Virus record (IMG/VR): IMGVR_UViG_3300010344_000600 | Span: 1 to 64,000 of that record | Length of the DNA: 64,000 bases | Source: a virus | Lineage: Duplodnaviria > Caudoviricetes | Direction: 5' to 3' (one strand) | Program-made: the position numbers and the translations under genes | In this document: positions 25,301 through 52,604 of the stretch, piece by piece | Layout: each line of letters opens with the position of its first letter | Numbering within the stretch: position 1 is the first letter of the stretch | Notes under the pieces: model-generated | Told to the model about the DNA's origin: nothing | Database searches by the model: none | Seen by the model: only the letters and a program-made list of their open reading frames with translations

Positions 25301-28300
25301 CGTCCTGACACTGATGCGCTGGGGTCTGGAAAACGGCCTAAAGGCAAAGGGAATAAACGAGGCGGGCGGCTGGATCAGCAGTCTGGCGGAACGCCGGGGG
25401 CCGCTGGGGATGACGCAACTGGTGACCGGGGAGCAGGAGGGGGAGGCCAATCTAACGGAAACGGACCTGATGACGGAAACGGATCCGCTGGGAGCAGCGG
25501 CGATGCTACTGGAAAGTCTGGTGCTGAACTACAAAGCGGGGTTGTAGGCCTCGAAGCCATTGACGCAAAGAAGAACACGGACGAAATATCCGATTCCGTT
25601 TTCGAGAACTACTATCCGCAGCGCCTCTCTGTTCCGGGGGCCAAACCACACCCCGGCCGGCTGGTACAGTCCGCGGCGATGGGCGCCGTCGAGCCGCCTG
25701 CTCCAACCTACGTGCCTAACCTGCCAAAGAAGGTGATCGATAAGGGGTTGTTGTCGATCGCGCAGATCGAGTCCGTTGTTTATGCCGGGCAGGCGCATAA
25801 CCAGATGCTACCGAATGGCGAACGGCGCGGCTTCTTCATCGGCGATGGAACCGGGGTCGGAAAAGGCCGTGAAATCTCCGGAATCATCCTCGATAACCTG
25901 CGGCAAGGGCGCGACAAGGCGGTATGGGTGTCGTTCAATGAAGGCCTGTTCACCGACGCCAAGCGCGACATGACCGGTATCGGGGCTGACCCGGAGCAAC
26001 TGTTCTGGCTGGGCAAGACAAAGGCCGACGCCGCTATCACCGCCAAGCGCGGCGTCCTGTTTACAACCTACAGCACGCTCGGGCGCGGAGGAAGCAAGAA
26101 GCAGGCAACAGCCGACGCGACGACCGGAAAGAGTAAGCCGGCCAAAACGCGCGGCGACCAGATCGTCGAATGGCTGGGCGAAGACTTTGATGGGGTCATC
26201 GTCTTCGATGAGGCGCACTCGATGGGAAATGCTATCGAGATGCGTGGACGACGCGGAAAGAAGAAGCCATCGGCGCAGGCGATCGCCGGAATTGATCTGC
26301 AGAAACGACTGCCCAAGGCGCGCATCGTCTATGTCTCGGCAACCGGAGCAACCGAGCTCTCCAACCTGTCCTACGCTTCGCGCTTAGGCTTGTGGGGCGA
26401 AGGAACGCCGTTTGCGACACCGATCAAGTTCATCAATGATGTTTCAGCAGGCGGGGTCGCAGCGATGGAGTTGATCGCGCGCGACATGAAGGCGCTCGGC
26501 ATGTATATCGCGCGCTCACTATCCTACGATGGCGTCACTTATGAGCGGCTTGACCATGAATTGACGCCGCTACAGACCGATATCTACAACGAACTTGCAA
26601 AGACCTGGCAGACGGTACTGCTGAATGTTAACGAGGCTCTTGGAATAACCGGACAGGACATGAGCGGCGACGCCAAGAGCGCGGCGCTATCGGCCTTCTG
26701 GAGCACGCATCAACGATTCTTCAATCAGGTCATCACGTCCATGCAGACGCCGACGGTGATCGAGAGCATGCGTCAGCAGATCGCCGCCGGTCATGCTGTC
26801 GTTATCCAACTGACTAATACCAACGAAGCCGAGCAGGAGCGCCAGGTCGCGCGTGCTCAGGCAACCGATACAGCCCTTGAGGAACTTGACTTTACGCCAC
26901 GTCAAGCGCTGATGGACTACGTGCGCAACGGGTTCCCAGTAGCGGCCTACGAGACGTATGTCGACGATAACGGGAATACACGCTCCCGGCCGGTCGTCGA
27001 TTCCGAAGGAAATCTTGTGCAGGACCAGGACGCCGTGGCCATGCGTGACCAACTGCTCGGAACGCTTGAGCAGATCCGGGTACCTGAGAATCCAATCGAC
27101 GCGATCATCAACGCCTTCGGCTCGGATAAGGTAGGCGAGGTCACTGGGCGAAAACGTCGCTTTGTGCAGACGCGCGACGAGGACGGAAACCTCAAGATCG
27201 TTGAGGAAAAGCGCGGATCACATGCGGCCAAGAACGATGCTGATTCCTTCCAGGACGATAAGAAGCCGATCCTGATCTTTTCTCAGGCAGGCGGTACCGG
27301 ATACTCGTTCCATGCCTCAAACGAGGTCAAGAACCAGCGGCGACGAATTCACTACATCCTGCAGCCGGGGTGGCGTGCTGACGTGGCGATCCAGGGAACC
27401 GGTCGGACGCACCGCACGAACCAGGCCAATGAGCCGCATTACGCGCTGCCGACGACGAATCTAAAGGCCCAGAAACGATTTGTCTCGACCATCGCCCGGC
27501 GCATGGACCAGATGGGTGCGCTAACCCGCGGGCAACGGCAGGCGGCCGGGCAAGGACTGTTCTCGGCGGCGGATAACCTTGAGAGCCAGTACGCGATTGA
27601 CGCGCTCGATATGTTCTTCAACGACCTGTATTCCGGGAAGACGCCACTCAATTTCAACGACATTACGCAGGCCATGGGGCTGACCGGACTGATCAATGAG
27701 GACACTGGGGGGCTGAATACCAGCAGGTTGCCGGAGATACCGCAATTCCTGAACCGCTTGTTGTCGTTGCAGACGCACGAGCAGGATGCCGTTTTTGATG
27801 AATTCTCGAAGCGGCTCGATGAAATCGTAGCCTACGCCGTGCAGAACGGAACATTCGATAACGGACTGCAGACGCTGCGCGCTGAATCGATCGTCAAGAA
27901 GCGTGACGAGGTTGCTTACGTAGACCCGAGGACGGGCGCTGAAACGCGCTATATCGAGGTCGACGTAACGAATCCTATCCGATACACAAAATGGAAGGAC
28001 GCCTCAGCAATCAAGGGGTTTCCTGACTTCAAGGGATGGTTTAAGGATCAGCATGGACGCCTATTCGGATTCCGCGATCTTGGGGATCGCGTCGATGCTG
28101 CCGGAAAGACTGTTCGCCGTGGCGCCAAGTACGACACGCGGGGACGGACGATCTACGTCGACAATGCGGCTGATGTCCTGCAGGGATACCGCTACATCCA
28201 CAAAGACGGGCTCTCGGTGAAAGAGACGATCGCTATCCCGATGAATATCGCCGACATGCCCGCCGCCTGGGCGGCCGAGATTGAGGTGGCACCGAAGAAA

Positions 28301-31300
28301 TCGACACAACTTAACCGACTGGTCGTCGGGGTTATCTTGCCGGTGTGGGATCGGGTGCGTGGTCGCTCGACAATCGTGCGGCTGCAGACCGACGATGGCG
28401 AACGGATGATCGGGCGCTTATTAACTACGAAGGATGCGGAGGCAACGCTAAAGAATCTTGGTCTCGGTTCATCCGTGTCGAAACTATCTACAGCGGAAGT
28501 GCTGTCGCGTATCCTCGCCGGGGAGAAGGCGATCCTCGGTAACGGATGGGAAATCAGCCGGGTCAAGGTATCAGGGGAAGATCGCCTAGAACTGAAATCG
28601 TCGTCTGGATACTTTGCCAACGGGGATCAGTCGATCCTCAAGTCGCAAGGCGTATTCTTTGAGCGCATCCAGTGGAACGAGCGCGCCTTCATTCCGATGG
28701 GGGAACAGGCGGAATCTGTCTTCAAGCGCGTCACTGAGTCGCGGCAGGTCGTAGATCTAATAGGTAGCAGCAAGAAAGCACAGGATGATGCGTCCGAGAC
28801 AGTTTTCTCCATGGGTAGCGGCGAAGTGCGCATCTCGACTGCCGACAAAGCCGTCTACGGCATGGCCAACGAAGGTCGCAGCGCCGCCGAGATCCTGGGT
28901 TTCATCCAGGCATCGTCGCGGAACCCCTTCTATCGCCAGTTGGCCAAGTTACTGCTCAAGACCGGGATCAACCCATCGGTAACAGTCGGTGACTCCAAGG
29001 GCTGGAAATTCAACGCCGGCCGGGACAACAAGTATTCGGCGGCCTACAACCCAAAGACGGATGCGATATCGCTGTTCCGTCCGGCATCGGCTGAGCGGCA
29101 TGCGTTACACGAGATGGTACACGCAGCAACCATCAAGGCATTACAGAAACAAGGGCTTTCCTCGCTCAAGATGCGCGCGCTATTCGCGCATGTGAAGAAG
29201 TCCGGCAAGCTCAAGGGCATGTACGGCATGACGGATATCGACGAATTCATGGCCGAAGCCTTCACAAATCCATTCTTCCAGGAGAAATTGCGCTCTGTGT
29301 CCGCGCCGAGTGGAATGAATGGACTCAAGAACGCATGGCACTGGTTCGTGCGCGTGGTGAGCAAGATCCTCGGGTTGGAACAAGGTGATGAAACTGCACT
29401 TTCTGCTGTGTTGAGTATTGGTGTTGGGGTGATGCGGGAGAACAAGCAAGCCAACAATAGCGAATCTACTCGTTCTGGCTATACTGAGAGCATGGCTAAA
29501 GACAACCTTGACCCAGACGACAAAGAAGCGGCCTTCGTTCAAAGCAATGTCGAAGGAAAATCACTGCTTGAGGTTGCGCAATGGATTGAATCAGCCGGGG
29601 CGCCTTCCGAGCGCCTGATCGCCAGCAAGGTTATCGATCGCTTGCAGATGTTGCAGCGGGCCGGCGTTGCTCTGAATTTCAAGGTAGCGCATGTGGGCGA
29701 CAAAATACCCGTCTCCCTGGCTAACGCACGTGGGATGGCCTCCTATAACTTCGGGAAGAACGATTCCAGAATTGATGTATGGGTCAATGGATCTGACGTA
29801 ACGGGCAAGGTCGGCATGAGTCCCTACATCGTGCTGCATGAGCTCGTCCATGCGGCAACAATGGGAGCAGTTCGCCTTGGAAACTATAAGGTAGCTGCGG
29901 GAACAAAGTTGGCGGCCGACGTCGCTGACCTGTACGCCGTCAGCAATGCAGTAAATACCCACATCAACCAGAGGATTAAAGCCGCGAAGCAGGGGAAAAC
30001 GAAACTTACGCCGTTTGAACAAGCGATGTTTGATGGCGACATCAACGCTTTCAGTACGCCGAACGAAACCCTGGCCTGGGCGCTGACGGATGCGAAGGCA
30101 CAAAGCTACCTTGAATCCATTCCCTATAAAGGAAAGTCGGCATGGACCGCCTTCGTTCAGGCGATCCGTAACCTGCTGGGTTTGAGCCCGTCTTCCGATA
30201 CGGCTTTGTCTGAAGTGCTGCGCGTAGCCGAAGCCTTGATGAGCGACAACATCAACGAAATGATACCGATCGCCAATGCGACGGGTACGGCCATGACGGT
30301 GCAGTCTTCGTCGGTGCAGGAGGTGGCGACGAATGATGACATCCGCTACTCCACTTCCGCCGACCCATCCGCCATCAACGGCACCCCCGATATCGAGCGC
30401 TGGCGCGACATCCTCAAGAGCCCAGATGTGCTGAAGTCGCTGCGTCAGCAAATCGCTGATCAGTTCCAGTCGCAAAAGACCTTCAACTGGTGGCACCGTA
30501 CCATTGGGTCGCAGTACCACAAGGCCAAGGTCGACGCCGATTTCGCCAAGGTCTATGAACGCGCTCAGCAGTATCTCGACGATACGAGCCGGCTGGCCAA
30601 CGAAGCGGCCGACCTCGCCCCCGGTCTCCTACCCAAAACCAACAACATGGCCGATGCGGCGCGCGGCATCTACCATATGTTCGGTGACAAGAAGGATGCG
30701 CAGGCCATTGCCGGCCCGGTCTTCCATGGCACGATGCTGGAAAAGACCTTCACCGATGACGAGTTGCGCAATCCGCCCGAGGATATTTTCGGGAAACCGC
30801 AGTTCGCGCCCCTGACAGACAAGCAGATCAAGCTGTACCGGCAGTACCGGGCGACGATCGACAAGAGCCTCGACGACCTAGCCATCTCAGAAATGGCCCG
30901 CTTGTCGCGGACCTCAAAGATGCTGCAAGCGCCGCAGGGGCTTTCCTTGCGTGCGACGGTGGCCTTCTATCGGGAACAGTACGAAGCGGCCCTGGAGAAC
31001 GCGCAAACCGCCTTGGCGGACGTGAAACAGCAGCACGCCGACGATATGGCCATGCTCGAATCCGCGGCACAGGATCAAGCCAGCAATGCCGACGAGCGGA
31101 AAAAGTACGCCGGTCTGCGCGAAGCCATGAAAACACGCCAGGCCGCCGAGCTATCCGCCGCCCAGCGCACCGTCGACAACCTGGAAGAGCTGGACAAAGG
31201 AATCGTCGGACGCGCCGGGATCATCGAGAAGTTGAAGGGCGAGGGCTACTCGCCCCTGATGCGCTTCGGCCAATACACGGTCGACGTGTTCTATGAGGAC

Positions 31301-33235
31301 GAGAACGGAAAGCCGATGAAGGATACCGACGGCAACGAAATGCGGCCGTTCTTCGGCATGTACGAGTCCGAGGCGATGGCCAACAAGGTCGCCCGTGCGC
31401 TGACCGCCGAGTACCCGGATGCGACGGTCAAGAAAGGAATCATGTCACAGCGTGATTTCTCGCTGTTCAAGGGCGTTACACCCGAGACGCTGGAAATCTT
31501 TGGTAAGTTGATGGGCGCTGAGCAGGATGAAGCCTTCCAGAGTTACCTGAAACTGGCGGTCAACAACCGATCGGCCATGAAGCGTCTAGTGCATCGCATG
31601 GGGGTCGCTGGTTTCAACGATGATCCGACGCGCGTACTGGCGTCGTTCATCACCAGTAACGCGCGGGCGGCGGCCGGCAATTATCACCTGGGCGAGATGC
31701 TGCGCGAGACCTCGGCCATCCCCAAGGGCAAGGGCGACGTCAAGGACGAAGCGGTCAAGCTCCTACAATACCTGCAAAACCCATCGAGTGAAGGCGCTTG
31801 GTTGCGTTCGCTGCTGTTTGCCAACTTCCTGGGGGGCTCGGTCGCGTCAGCACTGGTCAATCTGACGCAGACGTTCATTACGACGGTTCCCTTCCTGCAT
31901 CAGTTCGGTGGCAATACGACCGGCAATGTCCTCTCCGCAATGAAACTGGCGGCCGGGCGCATGGGCACCAAGAAGAAGACGACCGGCGACGCGGTCCTCG
32001 ACCAATCTTTGAAGCGGGCCGAAGAAGAAGGCGTTGTTTCCCCGCACGAGATTCACATGCTGCAAGGCGAGTCCATGCGCTCCGGGGTCCTCACCGGAAA
32101 CCGCTTCACGCGCAATCTGATGAAGGGTTGGGGTTCGTTCTTCTCCGTGGCCGAGCAGTACAACCGGGAAGTAGCCTTCATTGCCGCCTACAAGGTGGCG
32201 CAAACCAAGGGCATGAGCGGAGAACAGGCGTATCAGTTTGCCGTCGATGCGGTCAATCAGACGCAGTTCCAATACTCGAAGGCATCACGCTCGAACTGGG
32301 GGCGCGGGCCGGTAGGGGCAAGTCTGATGATATTTAAGACGTTCACCCTGAGCTACCTGGAGTTTGTCAAACGGCTACCGCCCAAGGAGCGGGCTCTGGC
32401 CATGGCCGTCCTGTTTGTCGCGGCCGGCGCGCAAGGTTTGCCGTTTGCCGACGATCTGGATGATTTGCTCGACACCATCATGCAATCGCTTGGATTCGCA
32501 TGGAATACCAAACAGGAGAAACGCGCGGCCATCGCCAAGGTGCTTGGCGCGGACGCAGCGGGCTTTATTCAGTACGGGGTGAGTTACGGCCTTCCGATCG
32601 ACCTATCGGGCCGCCTTGGCCTTGGAAACCTGATTCCCGGCTCTGCTGCCTTCAAGCCATCGGAAACCAATAAGACGCGCGACGTGGCTGAATTCTTCGG
32701 CGCGGCGGGCGGATTGTTGCAGCAGGCCATGAAAGGCTTTGAGAAAGTGCAGTCCGGTGATGTGCTCGGCGCGGCCAAGGCGCTGGCGCCGAAAGCAGCG
32801 GCCGACGCCATTAAAGGTCTCGACATGGCGAACAAGGGCTACTACACCGATACAACGGGCCGCCGAGTCGCAGACGTATCGGGATTGGATGCGCTGGTCA
32901 AGGGAATAGGATTCCAGCCTGAAGTCATTGCCGAGGATGCCCGCGCCCGCTCGATCGTGCAGGACCAAATTACCCTGGATCGTTCGGTGCAGGGTCATAT
33001 CCAGTCGATGTGGTCACAAGGGTTGATCGAGAATGACCCGGAGAAGGTGTCCAACGCACAAGCCGCTTTGCGTGACTGGAATGAAAAGAACCCGGAGAGT
33101 AAGATTGTCATCAGCCGAGCGGCCATCTTGCGCCTCGTGCAGCAGGCCCGATTGACGTCCGATCAACGGATGGTGAATACGATGCCCAAACAGATGAAGG
33201 CGCAGTTGCGACAGACGCTGGAAGGCAACTATTGA
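16358..33235 (+). CDS. Giant polyvalent protein (5625 aa), DarB-like in logic: InPase-like + LPD1-like zincin + N6-adenine MTase + Strawberry-notch helicase + two HExxH peptidases + PLxRFG + C-terminal helical region
   Basis: Motifs IENPKGSERSG..YGY..GADGDQVD; FGKWV..HEWAH..ELFARAFE; FSTPP/EPSAGTG/NPPF; GDGTGVGKGR/DEAH/QGTGRTHRTNQ; HEMVH; HELVH; YSPLMRFG. Confidence 0.9.
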   Translation: MANTSVTDIDQDELNQARKALGTSEVDPKELELARKKLANPEMNDPGFVTSIKSGVGQQASALARSAKDIPVIGGIGAFDRLGKWGDRVQENNPMGIQSLSDVIDSPVETLKEGAGNAIAQMPANVASGAAGRVLGGILGARFGNAALGQKIGAWAGMGLPTLAQEYGGIRQTQDQEVANGNPEADDKGRALAGALPAAAVEFGMGPQRLLGRMIGEGFEGSAKQLAAKFAKETAGMTPAQASRHVIKSAGKDILRNGAEEGAEELVQNPLEAWGAHQDPMSSETIDQSLTGAALGFSGGLALGSPMTAMQHAKAKSMADNGLVAETPAAPPSPRGPLSAAAAAGQAAMPTAAPVAPADPLAERVAAMAPTIESKDLIRQMRSDPRFGPETITDALHAWAIGRNPALHPSVRAQALDNLEQLFGPRNFNMGQTAPSADEGVLPGEAQRIPNDPGTGQLAAPPTYPALPASVDTPVDTSAAPVPAPLIDSMPSETSNPSLPATPSIPSVETSPSIPSSTVVPDDDMEAKTLEAFNNVFGEDPSATTSETKPAEAAPSVPAAPDPIAIAEAQTQARVDAARADEQRTAARNLIRDRVAHGYTEIKDGALLNPKTGATHPLNNPAEFLVAHNALRNRIDEAAHTAATSHQNDLTQPSDAQKEAGNYAKGHVEWNGLNLAIENPKGSERSGTDPNGKAWSVTMPGHYGYVKKTLGADGDQVDLYLGNAPHSKKVFVVDQIDADTGKFDEHKAIGNVRDEAEATKLYDAGFSDGKGPQRRGAITEMSVDQFKDWVKKGDTTKALAYKVPNMAPSPKESARSKPRLGESPQEVWAAIKAANGGIIVNGRTARPAIRVPGLTGTFSLANDFTLDKLVAGGKGLIKATREENKAVDAAVDQDRAEVVAMSQWGQHAGDKNGNQKVIQVLHSPSGNSYQTQPNPTQPEENNATIPEAAQAIEAEAQGSEQQPAVENDESRFVAAAAELGLSPFNNNPNIQARYFGPYNRSGELIEKETVVSLNRNPDERVFPYRLMHVNMVSKPQISLVDKRFKTLSDAVEATREALVVAEKNAPTENKDAEVSAEFNQEATESAPGEINTDIAENAQNPVANEDDAQNTASELPFGIEIKSFQHTKTGETKFAVVVPVRTSSEDYQTLNKTAIKHRGRYSSFKGSGAVPGFLFGSNENAVAWANDPAVAGVLKGYEKADETKSEAATPKKPEESNQERSFRKWGENYNTVVNTADLSSVSLADLERADSWADSFIASERRKGWDGGAVNETIINAMAPDVAAIKAELSKRYAERDARLESAKTGAVLAKAGSILLDEYGENEWSLDADLIDDVAARNYVTIRQGMMGERKQAVTPYEIKKRIAEDAKFRAEHPNKSKAEENTPSASDAVPTEATPASIPYQYLLTGELWDAMSYSQHEAIANGYIGGMRAVVHRLSGSKWADIGPGERKSLQESYDKLEQQRESSRKADESQEVARAAAEAEVFEAMRQVPAVINAATNSPHNLDVEIERQVAQWLGDQIHAAAIAGDGDRARALSSLLADNKPVLPPSFFEGLKESLKQAEAIDKEDALAEKGHDPANLAYVKAELQADQKDAFLQGWAHALAGKTKSTLPGNAAAAKGYDTAREWLTTPEGRAAFSGKRAKKLENTGADLRRWFDKQKAKIRDDSDNEAVIAALDLATGRADLMRGMVADLATPGTLRWMEQMRYGVMPFKQWITERGMLQRLYGRVGNTDTARMSLYLEGKAYLKDDLENPDAPRSFFDEIKLASTREQRIAKLRDAAQEYATLMSLLTDGVRAAGTVEEAARALQSVLWGDESQEMTFNVYDQKNYSDTGKLVATLLSHPDRTAWRFAWNGKNLRDQTYSLRGLIDKENDALTTTKKAALVPPRLDHVERTGEDYRGGSNVSPEQFKRKFNFADVGFGKWVNSRQDQDHLNYAYDAFLDLAKLLNVPPESIALGGKLHFTIGALGQGKFAAHYAPSQPHPDGGTVPVINVTNTRGDGTVAHEWAHAMDLTPQERLSVEGDYAHLARAISIIKADLKYAYHFDAVKAGVMRMLGGDAWWKGDKRSAQTDAGRLENARRAIDYYSGASHQLSTYYKEAIKLDGNKTKDPYWSNDLELFARAFEGWTGDALNGTSTYLVNPEWSGEGMVTDKTHRGTPYPLGEERERFAQWFDALAKSMVYDAEIKALRLDALKWAENRPKHGDEWKTALDDLRASLPAILKQVKQEQAEKEATESAARDEARTMAVGDVIRARRMNNGLSSRFPDPLTITAVTPTPDGLGVPRISFMVDDPAGVKPTEHTYTGEFFEVMERATDRALKEAAAAKTEAESSAPAIEPTGTLSDTDYERLFDEAAAELSEAAAEQPESPVTAALPGGWTVEDVKEIQALVNAGKIVLVADEKLGIPTIHDFSGRSAHLGFGTFRLSTPEFEVLFDGGAAMHNTPSGKGYTVVLVNSGTFPYDEAGVKATLQGLLSGTGTAETAIAAEDKGSMPEPDGQPDKKDEQPKPAKKPRPGKLPKLDDQVQKTASALIADAAKMGVKGVDEALTGLVKLFGGGAGKLMSFPAGMDEDTYKSAKPHFEAALKSFQEAGMSLKDLFKWLIEKFGLGIKPYALHFAKESALSTDLGEKPSARLAVSGFVQKQMAKSEAFTSRQLFDEADRAFGGTQAEGKYSPKDAYDAMESGVNQYLLATPFPIAVEADKAADIASLLQDKIRILPTQTRRDAEMDEFQQFSTPPALSYVANWVAAIKPGEIMAEPSAGTGDLAVWAKKAGADLILNELSSRRVSGLKELFPGARVFSENAEQLHNVLPIDAVPTVVVMNPPFSATAGRAAGTRDTMNGARHIEQALKRLTPNGRLVAIVGQGMAADRPAFKEWWKSISATYNVRANIGIDGSEYAKYGTTFDNQILVIDKDGPTQGVVLTGKVARVAELPALLEKIRDTRPQPTRPNRPGESDADQPGGSDLSDQDGLGYQPGGDLRPDTDALGSGKRPKGKGNKRGGRLDQQSGGTPGAAGDDATGDRGAGGGGQSNGNGPDDGNGSAGSSGDATGKSGAELQSGVVGLEAIDAKKNTDEISDSVFENYYPQRLSVPGAKPHPGRLVQSAAMGAVEPPAPTYVPNLPKKVIDKGLLSIAQIESVVYAGQAHNQMLPNGERRGFFIGDGTGVGKGREISGIILDNLRQGRDKAVWVSFNEGLFTDAKRDMTGIGADPEQLFWLGKTKADAAITAKRGVLFTTYSTLGRGGSKKQATADATTGKSKPAKTRGDQIVEWLGEDFDGVIVFDEAHSMGNAIEMRGRRGKKKPSAQAIAGIDLQKRLPKARIVYVSATGATELSNLSYASRLGLWGEGTPFATPIKFINDVSAGGVAAMELIARDMKALGMYIARSLSYDGVTYERLDHELTPLQTDIYNELAKTWQTVLLNVNEALGITGQDMSGDAKSAALSAFWSTHQRFFNQVITSMQTPTVIESMRQQIAAGHAVVIQLTNTNEAEQERQVARAQATDTALEELDFTPRQALMDYVRNGFPVAAYETYVDDNGNTRSRPVVDSEGNLVQDQDAVAMRDQLLGTLEQIRVPENPIDAIINAFGSDKVGEVTGRKRRFVQTRDEDGNLKIVEEKRGSHAAKNDADSFQDDKKPILIFSQAGGTGYSFHASNEVKNQRRRIHYILQPGWRADVAIQGTGRTHRTNQANEPHYALPTTNLKAQKRFVSTIARRMDQMGALTRGQRQAAGQGLFSAADNLESQYAIDALDMFFNDLYSGKTPLNFNDITQAMGLTGLINEDTGGLNTSRLPEIPQFLNRLLSLQTHEQDAVFDEFSKRLDEIVAYAVQNGTFDNGLQTLRAESIVKKRDEVAYVDPRTGAETRYIEVDVTNPIRYTKWKDASAIKGFPDFKGWFKDQHGRLFGFRDLGDRVDAAGKTVRRGAKYDTRGRTIYVDNAADVLQGYRYIHKDGLSVKETIAIPMNIADMPAAWAAEIEVAPKKSTQLNRLVVGVILPVWDRVRGRSTIVRLQTDDGERMIGRLLTTKDAEATLKNLGLGSSVSKLSTAEVLSRILAGEKAILGNGWEISRVKVSGEDRLELKSSSGYFANGDQSILKSQGVFFERIQWNERAFIPMGEQAESVFKRVTESRQVVDLIGSSKKAQDDASETVFSMGSGEVRISTADKAVYGMANEGRSAAEILGFIQASSRNPFYRQLAKLLLKTGINPSVTVGDSKGWKFNAGRDNKYSAAYNPKTDAISLFRPASAERHALHEMVHAATIKALQKQGLSSLKMRALFAHVKKSGKLKGMYGMTDIDEFMAEAFTNPFFQEKLRSVSAPSGMNGLKNAWHWFVRVVSKILGLEQGDETALSAVLSIGVGVMRENKQANNSESTRSGYTESMAKDNLDPDDKEAAFVQSNVEGKSLLEVAQWIESAGAPSERLIASKVIDRLQMLQRAGVALNFKVAHVGDKIPVSLANARGMASYNFGKNDSRIDVWVNGSDVTGKVGMSPYIVLHELVHAATMGAVRLGNYKVAAGTKLAADVADLYAVSNAVNTHINQRIKAAKQGKTKLTPFEQAMFDGDINAFSTPNETLAWALTDAKAQSYLESIPYKGKSAWTAFVQAIRNLLGLSPSSDTALSEVLRVAEALMSDNINEMIPIANATGTAMTVQSSSVQEVATNDDIRYSTSADPSAINGTPDIERWRDILKSPDVLKSLRQQIADQFQSQKTFNWWHRTIGSQYHKAKVDADFAKVYERAQQYLDDTSRLANEAADLAPGLLPKTNNMADAARGIYHMFGDKKDAQAIAGPVFHGTMLEKTFTDDELRNPPEDIFGKPQFAPLTDKQIKLYRQYRATIDKSLDDLAISEMARLSRTSKMLQAPQGLSLRATVAFYREQYEAALENAQTALADVKQQHADDMAMLESAAQDQASNADERKKYAGLREAMKTRQAAELSAAQRTVDNLEELDKGIVGRAGIIEKLKGEGYSPLMRFGQYTVDVFYEDENGKPMKDTDGNEMRPFFGMYESEAMANKVARALTAEYPDATVKKGIMSQRDFSLFKGVTPETLEIFGKLMGAEQDEAFQSYLKLAVNNRSAMKRLVHRMGVAGFNDDPTRVLASFITSNARAAAGNYHLGEMLRETSAIPKGKGDVKDEAVKLLQYLQNPSSEGAWLRSLLFANFLGGSVASALVNLTQTFITTVPFLHQFGGNTTGNVLSAMKLAAGRMGTKKKTTGDAVLDQSLKRAEEEGVVSPHEIHMLQGESMRSGVLTGNRFTRNLMKGWGSFFSVAEQYNREVAFIAAYKVAQTKGMSGEQAYQFAVDAVNQTQFQYSKASRSNWGRGPVGASLMIFKTFTLSYLEFVKRLPPKERALAMAVLFVAAGAQGLPFADDLDDLLDTIMQSLGFAWNTKQEKRAAIAKVLGADAAGFIQYGVSYGLPIDLSGRLGLGNLIPGSAAFKPSETNKTRDVAEFFGAAGGLLQQAMKGFEKVQSGDVLGAAKALAPKAAADAIKGLDMANKGYYTDTTGRRVADVSGLDALVKGIGFQPEVIAEDARARSIVQDQITLDRSVQGHIQSMWSQGLIENDPEKVSNAQAALRDWNEKNPESKIVISRAAILRLVQQARLTSDQRMVNTMPKQMKAQLRQTLEGNY
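18300..18740 (+). other. Inorganic-pyrophosphatase-like (InPase) domain of the giant protein
   Basis: AQKEAGNYAKGH...IENPKGSERSG...HYGY...GADGDQVDLYLG...DEHK...SVDQFKDWV. Confidence 0.8.
22080..22900 (+). other. LPD1-like zincin metallopeptidase domain of the giant protein
   Basis: F.F..V.FGKWV..Q..LN.AYDA..DLA; HEWAH at 22376-22390; YWS...ELFARAFE; YP.GEER. Confidence 0.7.
24500..25170 (+). other. N6-adenine DNA methyltransferase domain of the giant protein
   Basis: QQFSTPP (motif X), EPSAGTG (motif I), NPPF (motif IV) in gamma order. Confidence 0.85.
25590..28760 (+). other. Strawberry-notch-type SF2 helicase (P-loop + helicase C) of the giant protein
   Basis: FFIGDGTGVGKGR, DEAH, YVSATGA, QPGWRAD.AIQ..GRTHRTNQ. 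Confidence 0.85.
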
Positions 33236-33369
33236 AAACGCTCGGGAATATCGTGGCGGTGATGATGGTGGCTGGAACAGTGGCCTCCATTATCGATCAG
33301 CCGCTGATCCTGGTTTACTTTGCGGTGGTCTTCCTGCTGTTCAGTGGGCTGAACTGGAACGATCGCTAG
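33232..33369 (+). CDS. Small two-helix membrane protein, 45 aa (MKTLGNIVAVMMVAGTVASIIDQPLILVYFAVVFLLFSGLNWNDR), not in the ORF track
   Basis: TTGA overlap with the giant gene stop; GAAGG RBS; two hydrophobic segments. Confidence 0.6.
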   Translation: MKTLGNIVAVMMVAGTVASIIDQPLILVYFAVVFLLFSGLNWNDR

Positions 33370-33568
33370 GGCGCGCTGCATCGGCACGTATCTGTGCCGC
33401 CATGTTCTCCAGCAGATCGGCCAGGACGGATGCGGATAGCTCGCTGGTAGCTTGCACAGAAAATCCGCTTCCCTGAGCGCCGTTCAGGATGATGACCAGC
33501 ACGCCTTGCGCGTGCGTCAATTCGCGTACCTGCGTGGCCACGTCATCGTACTTTCCAGGTCCGTGCAT
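33341..33568 (-). CDS. Hypothetical protein (75 aa)
   Basis: AAGGA RBS; plausible helical composition; converges on the late operon. Confidence 0.6.
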   Translation of the reverse strand: MHGPGKYDDVATQVRELTHAQGVLVIILNGAQGSGFSVQATSELSASVLADLLENMAAQIRADAARPSDRSSSAH

Positions 33569-33719
33569 TTGCTTTTCCTTTTATCTCAAACTGAAGCACG
33601 CTGATTAAGCGCCTGGCGATGGTTCCCTAATCATCAGGCCGGGCCCCGAGCAGTTGCCCGCAGGGCAAGGGTCGGGCTGGCAGTCCAAGCGAAGCGCGGC
33701 AGGGAAGCGGAGAGATGAG

Positions 33720-33728
33720 TTATCCACA
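33720..33728 (+). promoter_or_regulatory. DnaA box (TTATCCACA, perfect consensus)
   Basis: Exact match next to an AT-rich tract and repeats downstream of rep. Confidence 0.75.
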
Positions 33729-33769
33729 GGCCGCTTCCTATAGTTCTTTAATATACAAAATATAGTTAT

Positions 33770-33850
33770 GGTCCCTCCATGGACCGTATTAAATCGCATT
33801 TAGTACGGTCCACCCATGGACCGTACTGCTGGTCCTCCAATGGACCGTAC
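33770..33850. repeat. Three palindromic iteron-like repeats GGTCC-N6-GGACC-GTA
   Basis: Units start at 33770, 33807, 33831; the middle one extends to the perfect IR GTACGGTCCA-ccca-TGGACCGTAC (33803-33826). Confidence 0.85.
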
Positions 33851-33854
33851 ACGC

Positions 33855-34487
33855 TTATTTGCTAGGCAGAAGTTTTGACAGGCTCGGCGCGATGCGGGCG
33901 AATAGTTCAGCGCCAAGTTGTTGGTGGTATGCATCGCTCTCGGCCGACGAACTCATTGGCAGTGACGATGCCTTGATTGATGATTTCAGCGTTTTTGACT
34001 TTTCATCCCAAACAAAGCCCGGTCCTGGAATAATCTCCACTTCCGCCCATGCCTCGTCGTCGTGCTCTCCAGTCTTGAGCGATTGATTCAGGCGATTGAG
34101 TTGAACGCGTAACTTGTTCGGCACGTAGTCAATCACCACAAAACATATCACCCGGCCGCCCAGCCGCACCGCCAATCGTTCTCTGGCAATGTAAGTCTGC
34201 CCTTTGCGCTTGAACTTCGATTCTTCAATAACGCGCAGCATATGTGCGTCGATCAGAATCTTAACGGCACGCACCACGGTTTGATGCGATACGCCGATCT
34301 TCTTTCCGATCTCGCGCATGCCAGGGAACGCCTCGCCGGTCGTAAAGTCGGCATAGCACTTGATAACCGACCACACCGCATAGGCGTTGACCCCGATCTC
34401 GGCAACGATACCGGACGCGAACATATCCCGTTGCTGGGTTTGAAATGTGCTGTCTATCTCGCCTTCCATTCCTCGCCTATCGCTCAA
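33855..34487 (-). CDS. Winged-HTH plasmid-type replication initiator (Rep-like)
   Basis: AYAVW..IK.YAD..TG.AFPGMREI.K.IGVS..TV.RA.K.L pattern of HTH Rep proteins; last gene of the par operon, directly followed by the origin; start may be ATG 34469. Confidence 0.65.
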   Translation of the reverse strand: MSDRRGMEGEIDSTFQTQQRDMFASGIVAEIGVNAYAVWSVIKCYADFTTGEAFPGMREIGKKIGVSHQTVVRAVKILIDAHMLRVIEESKFKRKGQTYIARERLAVRLGGRVICFVVIDYVPNKLRVQLNRLNQSLKTGEHDDEAWAEVEIIPGPGFVWDEKSKTLKSSIKASSLPMSSSAESDAYHQQLGAELFARIAPSLSKLLPSK

Positions 34488-34722
34488 TGTTGGTCGCTGC
34501 GCGACGTATCTTCACCTCGACATAATGGCGCTTCCTGCGCCGCTGGTCGATCGCCTCGATCGCCTTGAGCCCATCCCCCCACGTTGGCACCGCCAGCGTG
34601 TTCAACTGCCCAAGACGATTGTACTTGCCGCCATTGGCGCTCATGAGTACCACATCCCCGAGCAGATCCAGGTGCAGGCTGACCATGTAGTAGCGGGTGG
34701 GTGTTTCCCAGCGGCGGATCAT
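34477..34722 (-). CDS. WGR-like domain protein (the WGR triplet appears as NGG)
   Basis: RYY.V.L..DLLG...L....GG....G......A...RR.R.Y pattern. Confidence 0.6.
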   Translation of the reverse strand: MIRRWETPTRYYMVSLHLDLLGDVVLMSANGGKYNRLGQLNTLAVPTWGDGLKAIEAIDQRRRKRHYVEVKIRRAATNIER

Positions 34723-34728
34723 GGCGCG

Positions 34729-35052
34729 TCAGTCAGTTCCTATACCTTTGGCTTTGAGCAGCCGCTTGGCCTCGACCTCCAGCGCTTCAATGACGATCTT
34801 GCGCATGCTGCTTCCCCAGGTCATGCCGCCAATCCATTTCAGCTTGCAATGCAACTTGGCGGGCAAAGCGACGACATAGGTTTGCGTGGCTTCCTCGGGG
34901 ATATCTTCCCAAGGGTGTTTCTCTGGCTTGGTCTCGACCGGCCTGGAAACGGCCCGGAGTTGTTTCGCCGGCTTCTTGGAGTCGATTGGGGCAGCGTCTT
35001 TGGTCGGCGGCGTGACGATCGGCAGCACATAGGACTCGTTCTTAGCGACCAT
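34729..35052 (-). CDS. Small ParG-like ribbon-helix-helix partition protein
   Basis: Disordered N-terminus plus C-terminal TYVVALPAKLHCKLK...SMRKIVIEALE (strand-helix-helix); overlaps the parA stop. Confidence 0.65.
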   Translation of the reverse strand: MVAKNESYVLPIVTPPTKDAAPIDSKKPAKQLRAVSRPVETKPEKHPWEDIPEEATQTYVVALPAKLHCKLKWIGGMTWGSSMRKIVIEALEVEAKRLLKAKGIGTD

Positions 35053-35698
35053 GTTTAATGACCTCTCTGGTAATGGAATGCAGTTCGGCAATTGCCTTTT
35101 TGTTGACCGGTTTGTGTTCCATAACGGCTTTCCCGTGGGGAATGGCATCGCTGAAGGCGCCGCGCTGATGGGCCATGGAGGACAGGACTTTGAATTCCTT
35201 GAACGGGGCGACCGAGTTGCGCATGGTCGTTGCATCGCGGGCTCGGCTATGGGTGGACATGCCATTGAGCAGCAGCAAGGAGCGCAACTGTGGATTGCTG
35301 GTTCGGCGGATTTCGCCCAGCAGCGGATTGAGCATCGACAAGGCGTGAAAATCGAAGTATCCCGAGCGGGCCGGTGTCACCAGCACATCAGAAACGTCGA
35401 GCGCCGAGTGCAACTCGACTGAGTTGTAGCCGGCCACGTCGATCACCACGTCCTTGTAGTCGACGGACAGATCGCGGATCTGGTTGCCGACATTTCGGCC
35501 GTCCAGGATAGCCAGCGGTATCGCCGGCAGGATTCCCGCTTCTGCCCGCAAATGGCACCAGACAGAGGCCGACCCTTGCTGGTCGGTATCCACGAGCAGA
35601 ACCTTGCGGCCCATGCGCGCCAGGCTGACCGCAAAATTCACGGACAAGGTGGATTTTCCAGTGCCGCCTTTGGTGCCTCCAAAAATATAGATAGCCAT
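35042..35698 (-). CDS. parA: ParA partition ATPase, type Ib (short, no N-terminal HTH)
   Basis: Deviant Walker A GGTKGGTGKST, LLVDTDQQGS, VVIDVAG; GGGGA RBS before ATG 35698. Confidence 0.9.
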   Translation of the reverse strand: MAIYIFGGTKGGTGKSTLSVNFAVSLARMGRKVLLVDTDQQGSASVWCHLRAEAGILPAIPLAILDGRNVGNQIRDLSVDYKDVVIDVAGYNSVELHSALDVSDVLVTPARSGYFDFHALSMLNPLLGEIRRTSNPQLRSLLLLNGMSTHSRARDATTMRNSVAPFKEFKVLSSMAHQRGAFSDAIPHGKAVMEHKPVNKKAIAELHSITREVIKHGR

Positions 35699-35724
35699 GC
35701 TTTCCCCGCGATCATCACCCATCC

Positions 35725-35752
35725 ACCATAGCATAATTTGCAAGTTACGCAA
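35725..35752 (-). promoter_or_regulatory. Putative sigma70 promoter of the par-rep operon
   Basis: TTGCGT-N16-TATGGT on the minus strand, enclosed by a 12-bp IR with one mismatch (35699-35710 / 35757-35768). Confidence 0.45.
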
Positions 35753-35772
35753 ATAGCGCGGGGAGAGCTAGG

Positions 35773-36000
35773 CTAGGTATTCTTGGCGAGTCGCTGGACA
35801 AAATACCGGCGCTTGTTTCTCGTTCGCTGCAGGAGGGGCCGGCGCTCTTGGGCTCTGTGGGGCAGTCGTTCAAATAATGGAATAACGAACAGGGCCTTTG
35901 TCTCTGGCCAAGACCTGAATATGTCGAACCATCGCCAATTTTTTGGGGCCAGTACGGGGCTGGATACGGAGCGTAGGTAGAGAACGATGAGGGCGTTCAT
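35773..36000 (-). CDS. Hypothetical protein (75 aa)
   Basis: ATGA overlap with the upstream gene. Confidence 0.4.
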   Translation of the reverse strand: MNALIVLYLRSVSSPVLAPKNWRWFDIFRSWPETKALFVIPLFERLPHRAQERRPLLQRTRNKRRYFVQRLAKNT

Positions 36001-36419
36001 GGCGTTTCCCCAGTCACAATCGGCCCAGTCGCCACATTGATGCAATGCAGAAGTCTCCGGGTGCGGGCATTAAGCAGGCTTTGCAGCACTTGGCGCTCAC
36101 CGGGCAGCAAATAGGTCCAGGACTGCTGCTCGTCGTAAGCATCGAAGAGCTTCTTCTCCAACGAGGAAATGCGCTCGATCAGCGCGCGCCGGTCACTGTC
36201 CTCGGTACGCTCGGCTTTGGGTTGGTCCGAGAACGCGGCAATGCGCTGGCCGAGAACCTCGGAAAGTTGGTGCATCAGTTCGGCTTGTTCGATCAGGCGA
36301 TGGCGCTCCGGGCCGGGAAGAACCTCAAAAGGCGCGGTCCACAAGAAATCGGCCAACTTGCACAAGCGCTCGTCGAGTTCGCTCTTTTCTTTCACTACAC
36401 GTTCTTGATAGGCTTCCAT
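35997..36419 (-). CDS. crAss001_48-related protein with a C-terminal extension
   Basis: YQERVVKEKSELDERL.KL..FL...F..L...E...L..Q...M...S.VL..RIAAF. Confidence 0.7.
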   Translation of the reverse strand: MEAYQERVVKEKSELDERLCKLADFLWTAPFEVLPGPERHRLIEQAELMHQLSEVLGQRIAAFSDQPKAERTEDSDRRALIERISSLEKKLFDAYDEQQSWTYLLPGERQVLQSLLNARTRRLLHCINVATGPIVTGETP

Positions 36420-36493
36420 TTGGCTCTCTCCGTAAGAGTGACGCCCGGCGCTTGCTATCCTGGCATCACAAAGGGTTACGCGCTCGCTTTGGC

Positions 36494-36856
36494 TTACGCC
36501 TTCGCTTTGGTTGTTTTATTGCCAGAGGCGGCCGTGGCCGGCTTGGTTACGGGGTCAGAAGACAGAATATTTGGGCCTTCCTCAACTTGCGCTTGCGCTG
36601 CGGCCTGCTTGATCTGGTAGGGCATCCACTCAGCGTAGTGGTCATGCTCTGGAGGGGCTTCGCCTTCCTGTATCAGCGCAATATTCTGGCGGGAGAAGTG
36701 GTCGCCGTGGGCATCAAAACCGCCGACGTTGATGTTTCCGTTATCATGGACGCGGCAGACCAGCGCCGGTACCGGCTGCTCGTCATGGGTCTTGATAAAA
36801 GAGTCTGATTGGGCCGGATGGAACAATACGACGCGGCCGATAGTAGGTTTGATCAT
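36494..36856 (-). CDS. Conserved phage hypothetical protein
   Basis: MIKPTIGRVV.F N-terminus and WMPYQ motif; AGGAAG RBS. Confidence 0.7.
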   Translation of the reverse strand: MIKPTIGRVVLFHPAQSDSFIKTHDEQPVPALVCRVHDNGNINVGGFDAHGDHFSRQNIALIQEGEAPPEHDHYAEWMPYQIKQAAAQAQVEEGPNILSSDPVTKPATAASGNKTTKAKA

Positions 36857-37636: not shown

Positions 37637-39004
37637 TCAAACCTCCGGGAAAGCGGTGAATCTGGCATGACAGATTTTGCAGATATGAAAGACCATATCC
37701 GGTCCGGAAACATCTTCACCTGCATACGGGACAACATGGTCAACAGTGAAAATCTCAGAGTCTGGATAAAGCCCGGTGCAGTTGGAGCACCGAGTCAGCG
37801 CAGCCTCAGAAGCGGCCCGGCGCGCTCTCAGCGTTCGCTTGTTGGTCGGGCTATTGGCGAACAGCAAGCGAGAACGAATCACTTCAAAGCTGTACCCACG
37901 GCCAGCGCGGTTAATCATCTTGGCTATCCCGTTCATGCTTTCCGTGTAGGCGTTGGTTGTCGGGAAGTCGAAATAGTTGAGGATTTCCGTTCTCCAGTTC
38001 TGCATGGCTCGCGTCAGTTCGTGGAACTCCTTGGTCATCGACGCCGGGATAGTGGCTGCAAAGGCGTCAAATGCGGCGATAGCCTTGGCTTTCGGAAGGT
38101 CGTAGATTCCGAACAGAGCCTCTTTGATGTTGTACGCAGCATCAATCTCCGGCTCGTTGTTCCGCCATCCGCTCAAGTTGAAGCGCTGTTTATCGCTCAG
38201 GTTGTGCTCTCTGGTCAGCAACTGGTGCTTGCTCTGCTTCCACGAGAGGCGCATCTTCTTATCTTTCCCCTTCTGGACGCGGATACGAACCTTGTCGATT
38301 GCCGAGTTAGCCATCTTGACGACATGGAACTTATCAATCACCACAGCGGCATTCGGAAGCATTTCTCTCGAAACGTCGCGGTAAGCCTGCCACATGTCGA
38401 TAGTCACAACGCGCACTTTGGACCGGTCTCGGAACTGGCTAAACCACCGGGAAACCATAGGCTTGTTCCTGCCAGACAGCATGTCAACAACACGCCGATT
38501 CTCAACGTCAGTGATGATTGCCCGGAATATCTTGTTCAAATGGTTCTCGTCCAGACCAAGCCACTCTGGAAGGTATGGGCGGTATTCGCCATCGGTAACG
38601 GCAATGTAGTCGGCAGCGATGTTCCGAATGGTCTTTTCATCGCAGCCGAGATGCTCGGAGAGGTGCTGGAAGGTGTCACGAAGGCATTGCTGCTCGATGT
38701 AGCGAAGACATCGCTCAGTCATGCGCCTGACTGCATCAACGCCACTCAACGGCTGCGGGAACGTCCCGCCGCACGCCCTGCACTTGTAGCGCTGGACCTT
38801 AGCAACGATTCGCGTAGGAGTTCCACGAATAGGGCTATCGAGGATAGTCACAGACCTTGGCCCATGCTTGTAAAGTTCTCCAACGACGCCACAGAGAAGG
38901 CAGAACTCAGGCTGCTTGGCGTATTCGGCACTGATGATTGTCTGGTCTTGCTGCTCTTCTATGCCGAGAACGGCCCAGTCTTTGAGTTGAAGGATGTCAG
39001 TCAT
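37637..39004 (-). CDS. ISL3-family DDE transposase with a C-terminal HNH-like zinc module
   Basis: N-terminal CxxC..CxxC zinc finger, LGLDE, TIDMW..Y, DKFHVV, TNA.TES.N..K...R..RGY.SF; tail CSNC..DHVVP..CKICH. Confidence 0.9.
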   Translation of the reverse strand: MTDILQLKDWAVLGIEEQQDQTIISAEYAKQPEFCLLCGVVGELYKHGPRSVTILDSPIRGTPTRIVAKVQRYKCRACGGTFPQPLSGVDAVRRMTERCLRYIEQQCLRDTFQHLSEHLGCDEKTIRNIAADYIAVTDGEYRPYLPEWLGLDENHLNKIFRAIITDVENRRVVDMLSGRNKPMVSRWFSQFRDRSKVRVVTIDMWQAYRDVSREMLPNAAVVIDKFHVVKMANSAIDKVRIRVQKGKDKKMRLSWKQSKHQLLTREHNLSDKQRFNLSGWRNNEPEIDAAYNIKEALFGIYDLPKAKAIAAFDAFAATIPASMTKEFHELTRAMQNWRTEILNYFDFPTTNAYTESMNGIAKMINRAGRGYSFEVIRSRLLFANSPTNKRTLRARRAASEAALTRCSNCTGLYPDSEIFTVDHVVPYAGEDVSGPDMVFHICKICHARFTAFPEV

Positions 39005-39760
39005 TTAGGCGGCCATATCAATTTTTGCCAAATGGCAGAAGATACCGCATTGCACCTCGGGTTCCGATTGATAATCGCCAGTCCCCGGCTGAAGCTCGTC
39101 AAGGAATGCGCGCTTCTCGTCAATTCGAATAATGCGGACGCCAAGCCGCCGCGACTCGGTAGCCATGCGCTGAAACTGAGCAGGGAAGTCCTGCCGAATC
39201 TTGTTCCAGTAGCCCATTCCTTGGGCTTTGCAGCATCCAATGCAGTTGTTATGGTGGTATCCAAGACCGTACATGACCGGCAGCGCGATTCCTGCATCCT
39301 TGACGATGGACAGGCAATCCTTGTGCTCCAAGCCACGTTCCATCAGCGGAGATTCGCAGGCGATGTTGTTGGCGGCGAGAAAGTCGTCCCATCTATCGGC
39401 CTCTTCGGCGCAATATCCAAAGACGTGAAAGTCGGTCGGAAGCTCGAATCTCTCCCTAACCTGCTTCTTGAGCAGCCGAGTGCAGGGAGCGCCACGCACG
39501 CCGGAAATGTACGACTCCTTTCGAAAGACTTCGTAGATAGAGCCGTCGTACTTATCGTTGATGAGGTTGGCAATCGGCACGCCAAACCACTTCTCGCAGT
39601 CGGCTGCGAAGCGGTCGTTATCCGGATGCTCTTCACGAACAATACAGCGAGCTACAACCAACGGAAGACGGCCAGCATTAGCCACAATCGCCAGTTTCGT
39701 TGCAACCGCACTAGCCGCCCCACAGCTAAACCAGCAAATTATTCTGGAAGGTTCAATCAT
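39005..39760 (-). CDS. PAPS-reductase-like/adenine-nucleotide alpha hydrolase (PP-loop) protein, IS cargo
   Basis: WFSCGAASAVA PP-loop, EEHPDN.RF, APCT..LKK, GY.HNNCIGC.K, C-terminal CG.FC; lies inside the TIRs. Confidence 0.75.
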   Translation of the reverse strand: MIEPSRIICWFSCGAASAVATKLAIVANAGRLPLVVARCIVREEHPDNDRFAADCEKWFGVPIANLINDKYDGSIYEVFRKESYISGVRGAPCTRLLKKQVRERFELPTDFHVFGYCAEEADRWDDFLAANNIACESPLMERGLEHKDCLSIVKDAGIALPVMYGLGYHHNNCIGCCKAQGMGYWNKIRQDFPAQFQRMATESRRLGVRIIRIDEKRAFLDELQPGTGDYQSEPEVQCGIFCHLAKIDMAA

Positions 39761-52603: not shown

Positions 52604-52604
52604 C

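Follow-up and report, generated by a model that had tools for sequence, protein, structure and literature searches.

Introduction

Phage-plasmids are an established kind of element and are known mostly from enterobacterial models. P1 is a temperate phage with an unintegrated prophage; it has an initiator that acts at repeats, together with an AT-rich region and DnaA boxes, an adjacent ParA partition system and a second initiator for lytic replication. P1 is a myovirus, its ParA is of type Ia, its ParB is a large protein with a helix-turn-helix (HTH), direct 19-bp iterons flank repA, and dimers are resolved by Cre/lox. Here we describe a locus of a temperate phage of 82 kb from activated sludge, which lies in a stretch of 64,000 nucleotides (the window) corresponding to bases 1–64000 of the 82,038-bp IMG/VR record IMGVR_UViG_3300010344_000600. 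It is likely that positions 33720–35698 of the window form a self-contained module for plasmid maintenance, carried by a temperate phage that lacks an integrase, which would make this virus a phage-plasmid.

The design shared with P1 comprises a plasmid-type initiator with its origin, an adjacent ParA partition system and a second (lytic) initiator. The present phage differs from P1 in its short ParA, in the ribbon-helix-helix (RHH) partner of ParA, in palindromes that lie 3′ of the initiator gene (rep), in a Rep protein outside the curated Rep families, and in that no recombinase was found. Judged by this analogy, the arrangement is functionally that of P1, although both its components and the virion that carries them are different. 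Many phage-plasmids have been described (PMC7969092), so that the kind itself is known; the novelty lies in the phage lineage and in a widespread Rep/ori type that is unnamed in curated libraries, neither of which was met with in the literature searched. Following the criteria of Pfeifer et al. (2021; PMC7969092), by which core phage functions are combined with plasmid replication and/or partition functions, we found packaging, virion and lysis genes and a lysogeny switch on the one side, and ParA and, by comparative anatomy, Rep with its origin on the other. On the further criterion of extrachromosomal maintenance in lysogens, the indications are indirect: assembly as a circle or concatemer free of host flanks, the lack of an integrase, and a relative that is recorded as a plasmid in an isolate.

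The individual parts can be compared with type Ib partition systems (TP228 ParF–ParG–parH, pSM19035 delta–omega and pCXC100 ParA–ParB) and with iteron-type theta replicons (pPS10 RepA, F RepE, R6K pi and pSC101 RepA). As in the former, the gene for a short Walker-type ParA without an N-terminal HTH is followed directly by that for a small protein with a flexible tail and, at the level of the fold, a C-terminal RHH domain. Type Ib repeat arrays 5′ of parA were seen only in related cassettes, whereas this copy has an imperfect inverted repeat (35687–35710 / 35757–35780) that flanks the parA start on both sides. As in the latter, a putative winged-helix initiator goes together with clustered repeats, an AT-rich tract and a DnaA box. 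In contrast to the iteron replicons, Rep is short (204 amino acids, aa), the sites are palindromes of the dimer type, and we found neither iterons in direct repeat nor, at the rep promoter, inverted half-sites.

Organization of the locus

The module is a tight operon on the minus strand, running from 35698 to 33855, in which four genes abut or overlap in the order short ParA ATPase, RHH partner, WGR-like protein and 204-aa winged-helix protein (Rep). All four open reading frames (ORFs) are intact, and their order is the one first claimed in a preliminary description of this DNA. The operon is placed between the stop codon of a gene of the virion module encoding a protein of 5,625 aa (16358–33235, plus strand) and the leftward early genes, a position that was also borne out by the gene map. 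Apart from the promoter, which is discussed below, the sequence-level elements of that description were all upheld. Its feature had been drawn to 35768, which falls within the intergenic region 5′ of parA.

Rep and the sites 3′ of its gene

To characterize the winged-helix gene we compared about 45 loci (33 IMG/VR contigs, 6 genome contigs, individual protein contexts and 1 Polaromonas plasmid), across which the identity of Rep was 42–80 %. In nearly all of them three to five repeats follow directly after the Rep stop codon, often with a spacing of about 21 or 32 bp; the sequence of the repeats is lineage-specific and their position constant. Most loci additionally carry one or two perfect TTATCCACA boxes within about 130 bp of the Rep stop, where about 0.003 are expected per segment. 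A prominent AT-rich tract was seen mainly in the closer Rep lineages, and there the tract and its spacing to the DnaA box are conserved in sequence, whereas the repeats are not.

The repeats vary together with the recognition helix of Rep: identical helices go with identical repeats, similar helices with similar repeats and different helices with different repeats. The helix SHQTVVRAV pairs with the repeat GGACCGTA, SQPTVTRAV with CGATTCAC, SLGAVHKAV with TGAACGCA and SQTTVTASL with TAACGCTA, which is the pattern expected if Rep binds those repeats. Rep, repeats, AT-rich tract and DnaA box are also kept together in chromosome-linked loci without ParA (L003, L005), so that the repeats appear to belong to Rep and not to the partition system. 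Related cassettes with ParA have, in addition, clear short repeat arrays 5′ of parA that are distinct from the repeats after rep and are lacking in this copy; taken together with the ParA-less loci, this argues that the sites after rep are not the centromere. Because the DnaA box and a candidate unwinding tract lie beside the repeats, the region is best read as a replication origin, with the 204-aa protein as its initiator, and from this comparative anatomy we infer a pair of Rep and oriV.

In the phage itself the first palindromic unit begins five bases past the rep stop codon. The exact half-site TACGGTCCA occurs four times in the 64 kb, each time inside the same 70 bp at the origin, and no half-site was found elsewhere in the window, including the position 5′ of rep that would serve autoregulation. 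There is one perfect DnaA box in the window, where 0.22 are expected; it is also the only one in the 82 kb, and 12 bp separate it from the AT-rich 30-mer. The origin that had been proposed to follow the Rep gene can thus be resolved into palindromes (33767–33849), AT-rich tract and DnaA box, and the relatives are built alike. The AT-rich tract was also considered as a dif-like Xer site, as it has a TGTATA core, and this was rejected by eye since the flanking arms are unlike dif.

Relatives of Rep number at least 598, most of them in betaproteobacterial metagenomes; among the matches listed, the closest with a name is from Dechloromonas (80 % identity). Among 20 relatives, 18 matched phrog_8102, 'replication initiation protein', and 15 matched an O-like initiator family. 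With the Rep model as a query, the matches listed by Foldseek and VIA were winged-helix regulators of a generic kind, and none of them was a solved Rep; the nearest folds are regulators of the MarR, Fur and CRP types, and a profile search against PDB sequences similarly gave only weak regulator matches. By tblastn, nothing was found in the phage collection and only the distant Polaromonas match in the plasmid collection; a single-sequence scan of IMG/VR for Rep was empty, and an alignment-based scan was needed. The earlier assignment of this gene as a winged-helix Rep is nevertheless sustained by the winged-helix domain, by the covariation with cognate repeats and by the initiator-family matches among the relatives.

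A symmetric homodimer model of Rep reached a score of 0.75, compared with 0.01 for the best of three controls. At least 89 % of contacts agreed between the runs, and the predicted local distance difference test (pLDDT) of the partner was at least 74. Among proteins solved as pairs, 20 of 30 attained that mark, and among those solved as single chains 1 of 23; these counts give only a rough calibration because a purpose-made alignment was used for Rep. The model supports a symmetric dimer, which would suit palindromes with half-sites one helical turn apart. It seems probable from all these comparisons that the 204-aa protein is a dimeric replication initiator.

Partition genes and the WGR-like gene

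The first gene of the operon was listed as an ORF beginning at TTG 35752, while ATG 35698 has a good ribosome-binding site (GGGGAA) and public gene calls put the start near it. ParA matched AAA_31 in Pfam (5e-16; also MipZ and CbiA), phrog_164, 'ParA-like partition protein' (2.7e-37), and the NCBIfam model ParA_partition (1.2e-35, model positions 7–203 of 203 covered), the last with a score of 122.9 bits, which is under the curated cut-off of 180. A deviant Walker A motif, KGG-x-GKS, is present near the N-terminus. The family assignment is secure and the format is type Ib, as had been claimed. In at least 24 related loci a ParA homologue lies 0.3–1.2 kb 5′ of the Rep gene.

The 107-aa product of the second gene has no match in Pfam or NCBIfam, and sequence-level membership in the ParG or omega families was not found; phmmer searches of this protein and of the WGR-like protein against PDB sequences gave only chance-level rows. 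In an AlphaFold model built with 14 cassette homologues, a disordered tail is followed by a strand and two helices, with a pLDDT of 88–94 over residues 50–100. Of the top 50 structural neighbours, essentially all belong to the RHH proteins; omega, pCXC100 ParB, ParG and SegB are among them (Z 5–6.6, root mean square deviation 1–2 Å over 44–50 residues). The Z values are modest, as expected for a domain of 45 residues, and it is the uniformity of the neighbour list that suggests the RHH fold. The predicted RHH partner next to parA was thus corroborated at the level of the fold only. A small gene occupies this position in every related cassette and keeps the C-terminal strand–helix–helix pattern, and the C-terminus is 38 % identical to that of a 110-aa protein encoded after ParA on the Polaromonas plasmid pA29BJ2. 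The 107-aa protein is probably the centromere-binding partner of ParA, and the repeat arrays 5′ of parA in the relatives would sit at the usual position of a type Ib centromere/operator.

The third gene had been described as WGR-like. Its 81-aa product falls near WGR clusters in the ESM Atlas (features 0.90–0.91, template modelling score of the structure 0.87), so that the likeness stands by language model and predicted structure; no match was found in Pfam at E ≤ 0.1, the WGR model PF05406 included. By tblastn, the gene is missing from all related cassettes. The protein can be described as a WGR-like accessory of this phage's cassette rather than a member of WGR.

Table 1. Coordinates of the features in and around the par–rep module (window positions)
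Feature	Position	Strand	Remarks
Intergenic region, presumed promoter/operator and possible centromere	35699..35996	-	298 bp, upstream of parA
parA, 218 aa	35042..35698	-	First operon gene; Pfam, phrog and NCBIfam matches
parB-like RHH gene, 107 aa	34729..35052	-	Overlaps parA end; AlphaFold model
WGR-like gene, 81 aa	34477..34722	-	ESM Atlas likeness
rep, 204 aa	33855..34469	-	Winged helix; family and site evidence
Three 22-bp palindromic units, repeat family D1	33767–33788, 33804–33825, 33828–33849		Core GGTCC-N6-GGACC; putative Rep sites
AT-rich tract, putative DNA-unwinding element	33740..33769		87 % A+T; top AT-rich 30-mer of 82 kb
Perfect DnaA box TTATCCACA	33720..33728	+	Sole perfect box in window and genome
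Terminator-like hairpin, possible end of the par–rep transcription unit	33598..33612	-	Consensus scan only, weak
75-aa ORF between origin and giant virion gene	33341..33568	-	Counterpart in L008

Carrier genome

The record is 100 % complete by CheckV. The genes for TerS and TerL, with one for a GIY-YIG homing endonuclease between them, are located in its last 18 kb, as are those for a portal or adaptor, an N4-gp56-family major head protein, structural proteins and an endolysin; the window holds further virion genes and the giant polyvalent protein, with InPase, LPD1 and helicase domains in public gene calls. The leftward early genes include those for an exonuclease, a RecT-like and an SbcC-like protein. 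Genes for a CI-like (52228→51797) and a Cro-like protein (52346–52603) are divergently oriented; both were recognized by reading the translations. In the rightward direction there are an O-like initiator gene (53140–54303) beside the Cro-like gene, NinB and RusA-like genes and methyltransferase genes. The N- and C-terminal parts of the O-like initiator match phage replication-initiator families, and an HNH domain is inserted at about residues 120–195 (Pfam HNH 4e-12). In the part of the gene that encodes the linker, tandem 15-bp repeats (53764–53793) have an 11-bp repeat on either side, at 53748 and at 53792, and this stretch (53748–53802) may resemble an internal origin of the lambda type. 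The lambdoid regulation and replication ascribed to the phage are thus supported by the divergent pair and by the position of the O-like gene. The ORF at 52385–52999 has no family in Pfam or NCBIfam and is probably a shadow frame.

The claim that neither an integrase nor a protelomerase is encoded was made for 64 kb and can be extended to the whole record: a six-frame profile search of the 82,038 bp gave no tyrosine (PF00589) or serine (PF00239) recombinase, no protelomerase (PF16684) and no transposase with the retroviral integrase fold (rve, PF00665). In 14 named control genomes the tyrosine, serine and rve profiles matched most, while the protelomerase profile passed its cut-off in just one, so that this negative is the weakest controlled. 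The sole transposase is that of an insertion sequence (IS) of the ISL3 family.

The last 126 bases of the record repeat its bases 10–135. Logan contigs from two activated-sludge runs put genome bases 81883–81912 directly ahead of window base 10; one of these contigs, of 10,150 bp, bridges base 81912 to base 10. The genome is a circle or concatemer of about 81.9 kb without host flanks, which bears on the question of circularity raised by the preliminary description. Window bases 1–9 mismatch the circle and are probably an assembly end artefact; the mismatch accounts for the linear class of the record in IMG/VR. Contigs of the phage number at least 14 and come from at least 5 samples; the neighbours are the same on all of them, and the context is always that of a phage.

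Relatives of the phage and exchange with an integrase

With the C-terminus of the giant protein as a query, 11 related viral records were found. Two proviruses in isolate genomes share the giant protein, and each of them has a tyrosine integrase at one provirus end, which on the circularized map abuts the 3′ side of the giant gene. Comparison with these two proviruses supports the proposal that the cassette stands in place of an integrase. One complete relative with terminal repeats has a ParA-like gene and two integrases, and another complete relative has neither a ParA-like gene nor an integrase. Among the structural relatives G001 and G004–G009, ParA of this phage was not found in the seven searched for it, nor Rep in the five searched. 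In the closest structural relative (L055) the genes 3′ of the giant gene were uninformative in Pfam, with a GDSL lipase only.

A further relative is 'plasmid unnamed' of the cultured isolate Massilia violaceinigra B2 (NZ_CP024609.1, 87,120 bp, circular). Like the phage, it encodes a capsid protein of the N4-gp56 family (41 % identity), and its virion genes are followed by a giant gene, here a PLxRFG gene of 16.7 kb; also shared are a divergent pair of CI/Cro-like HTH genes, an HTH replication gene and a ParA system. It differs in a ParA of type Ia size with a ParB, in two site-specific integrases and in several IS elements. Its PLSDB gene table contains no cassette of ParA, small gene and HTH gene; the record was not searched for the 204-aa Rep. 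The existence of this plasmid in a cultured isolate indicates that phages of this build do exist as plasmids, and together with the integrase-bearing proviruses it follows that the lineage demonstrably includes integrating and plasmid-borne members and that the module at this position is exchangeable. No discussion of the Massilia plasmid as a phage-plasmid was found in the literature searched, which did not extend to the supplementary tables of PMC7969092.

Spread of the cassette

The same cassette of ParA, RHH partner, Rep and origin was found in unrelated phages of the siphovirus type (L008–L040 generally; L036 is a 47.9-kb IMG/VR contig). These phages carry tail genes like lambda J and encode an RNA polymerase of the single-subunit type as well as an exonuclease subunit of DNA polymerase; 1–2 kb from the cassette there is often an endolysin gene. 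A distant version is present on the 104-kb Polaromonas sp. plasmid pA29BJ2 (NZ_MN657148.1), where a trio of ParA, 110-aa protein and HTH protein shares a homologous RHH C-terminus and winged-helix domain (Rep 46 % identity over 59 residues). Palindromic repeats come after the trio, together with three DnaA boxes of which two are perfect, and the annotation of the three genes goes no further than AAA ATPase, hypothetical protein and HTH protein. The cassette thus occurs in unrelated phages and, in a distant form, on this plasmid, whereas the phage's own structural relatives use integrases or a different ParAB pair, which suggests that the phage acquired it by exchange. In the literature searched on Polaromonas and Massilia plasmids and on phage-plasmids with PLxRFG proteins or from activated sludge, we came across no account of this type of element, and blastn of 33200–36500 against the phage and plasmid collections gave zero matches.

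Some loci with Rep and its origin lie outside these settings. In two metagenome contigs beside rpoD (L005, L006) and in a Chromobacterium violaceum contig (L003), all chromosome-linked and without ParA, a small AlpA/excisionase-like gene precedes Rep, and a gene for an OLD-family nuclease or a Mob_Pre relaxase is nearby; these may be small replicative islands or satellites. In a 9.3-kb Logan contig (L004) an AlpA-like gene and Rep are located directly 3′ of a gene for a 792-aa fusion of an archaeo-eukaryotic primase (AEP) and a DEAD/ResIII helicase, which links the Rep family to another replication module. Four origins (L026, L027, L030 and L031) have, besides their own repeats, one TGAACGCA-type palindrome of the L009–L012 lineage, which could reflect past recombination between origins or cross-regulation of different replicon types.

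Discussion

The features described above suggest the following course. ParA and its RHH partner, judging from family membership, would segregate the copies of a circular prophage. A Rep dimer would bind the three GGTCC-N6-GGACC palindromes 3′ of its own gene and, with host DnaA at the adjacent box, would open the AT-rich tract, and theta-type replication would then start with the host helicase and polymerase. Lytic replication would be driven by the O-like initiator next to the Cro-like gene, giving separate replicons as in P1.

Several points weigh against such a plasmid prophage. Replication, copy number, stability and plasmid lysogeny are all things that we infer from sequence. Rep, unlike the initiators of iteron replicons, matches no Rep family: in Pfam it gave only sub-threshold matches (HTH_36, GntR, DnaD_N and RepL; no Rep_3), in NCBIfam no family, and in structural searches its N-terminal domain (residues 15–97, Z about 10) is a generic winged helix. 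Its sites are palindromes 3′ of rep, whereas classical iteron plasmids have direct-repeat iterons 5′ of it. The promoter claimed for the operon was not confirmed; a sigma-70 scan gave zero minus-strand matches upstream of parA, and at most a weak TTGCGT-16-TATGGT could be seen by eye near this gene, although the operon presumably has its own promoter in the 298-bp gap. A repeat search and comparison with relatives revealed no convincing centromere in this copy. No multimer-resolution recombinase is present, and an integrase of unrecognized type may be encoded. Among the siphovirus-type phages with the cassette, five records that are complete or nearly so were checked and three of them encode a small tyrosine recombinase, so the cassette alone does not exclude integration. 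The runs that bridge the junction may be source samples, and a circular assembly is equally expected of a circularly permuted, headful-packaged phage that is virulent or integrating.

Some of these points would fit a replicon that is real and yet does not sustain a stable plasmid prophage, serving instead in a transient carrier state, in early or lytic replication or in incompatibility, or accompanied by an unrecognized integration route. This we consider unlikely. In its favour, the siphovirus-type phages with the cassette have polymerase genes (for RNA polymerase and for the exonuclease subunit of DNA polymerase) of a kind usually met in virulent phages, some of them have a tyrosine recombinase, and an ISL3 transposase is present here; but the divergent pair of CI-like and Cro-like genes is the mark of a temperate switch, a partition ATPase of its own would be of use to a phage chiefly for stable inheritance at low copy number, the structural relative from Massilia is recorded as a circular plasmid in a cultured isolate, and ISL3 is an insertion sequence with its own ends. 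Slightly less likely still is that the cassette serves only partition and regulation, with the winged-helix protein and the palindromes forming a centromere-binding or operon-repressor complex while the prophage plasmid would replicate from the O-type origin of lambdoid kind. The winged-helix gene would be transcribed together with parA, palindromic sites are usual for operators and no other centromere is visible in this copy, the nearest folds are regulators, and three-component partition systems offer a parallel. Against this, Rep and the repeats keep the DnaA box and the AT-rich tract where ParA is missing, perfect DnaA boxes recur in most loci over many repeat lineages, the related cassettes have a distinct array 5′ of parA that fits the RHH partner, and the remote family matches of Rep are replication initiators. 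That the cassette has no present function, being a remnant that has become inactive or a product of chimeric assembly, is very improbable: the extra WGR-like gene and the lack of an obvious promoter or centromere in this copy could be taken as signs of decay, but the four frames are intact and tightly spaced, the arrangement is identical on the 14 or more contigs, which come from several samples and assemblers, and the three sites are undamaged, as are the AT-rich tract and the DnaA box.

The reading as a phage-plasmid with a self-contained maintenance module is therefore preferred. A broader proposal, to which we give a little less than an even chance as a whole, is that the 204-aa protein defines a large class of replicons in environmental Betaproteobacteria, unrecognized in curated libraries and spread as a mobile cassette that turns integrating phages into plasmid prophages. 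This class would be characterized by a dimeric initiator, palindromes 3′ of its gene, a conserved unwinding tract and a DnaA box; the cassette would move among unrelated phages, plasmids and chromosome-linked islands, replacing int/att in the phages; and the island copies, with an AlpA-like gene 5′ and defence genes near, would be replicative satellites or excisable elements.

Surveys of phage-plasmids miss replicases outside the profile libraries, a limitation stated by the reference survey itself (PMC7969092). The Rep family and its predicted binding code between helix and repeat make pairs of Rep and ori directly testable. Additionally, the combination of Rep gene, repeats, AT-rich tract and TTATCCACA is a searchable signature for hidden phage-plasmids and plasmids in wastewater and soil metagenomes. 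Since integrase-bearing proviruses, ParAB plasmids and the Rep/ParA form occur in one phage lineage, switching between integration and plasmid lysogeny can be studied there by comparison.

Other observations

The 75-aa ORF between the origin and the giant gene has a 48 %-identical counterpart 3′ of rep/ori in an unrelated phage locus (L008) and is missing from one variant of this phage (L050). The gene just 5′ of the par operon (35997–36419) matches crAss001_48 in Pfam (5.8e-16) and is named Sequestin in public gene calls.

The ISL3 transposase gene (37637–39004, Pfam 2e-59) encodes a C-terminal HNH-like extension and lies directly 3′ of a gene (39005–39760) for a protein like 3′-phosphoadenosine 5′-phosphosulfate (PAPS) reductase; the insertion was seen in every sampled copy of the phage. 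Homing-type nucleases are unusually abundant, at 52515–53153, 56727–57356 and 59261–60340 in the window and at 69286–69885 in the genome (L001:6286–6885). The set comprises free-standing HNH genes, a fusion of HNH with a RusA-like resolvase, and the GIY-YIG gene between those for TerS and TerL.

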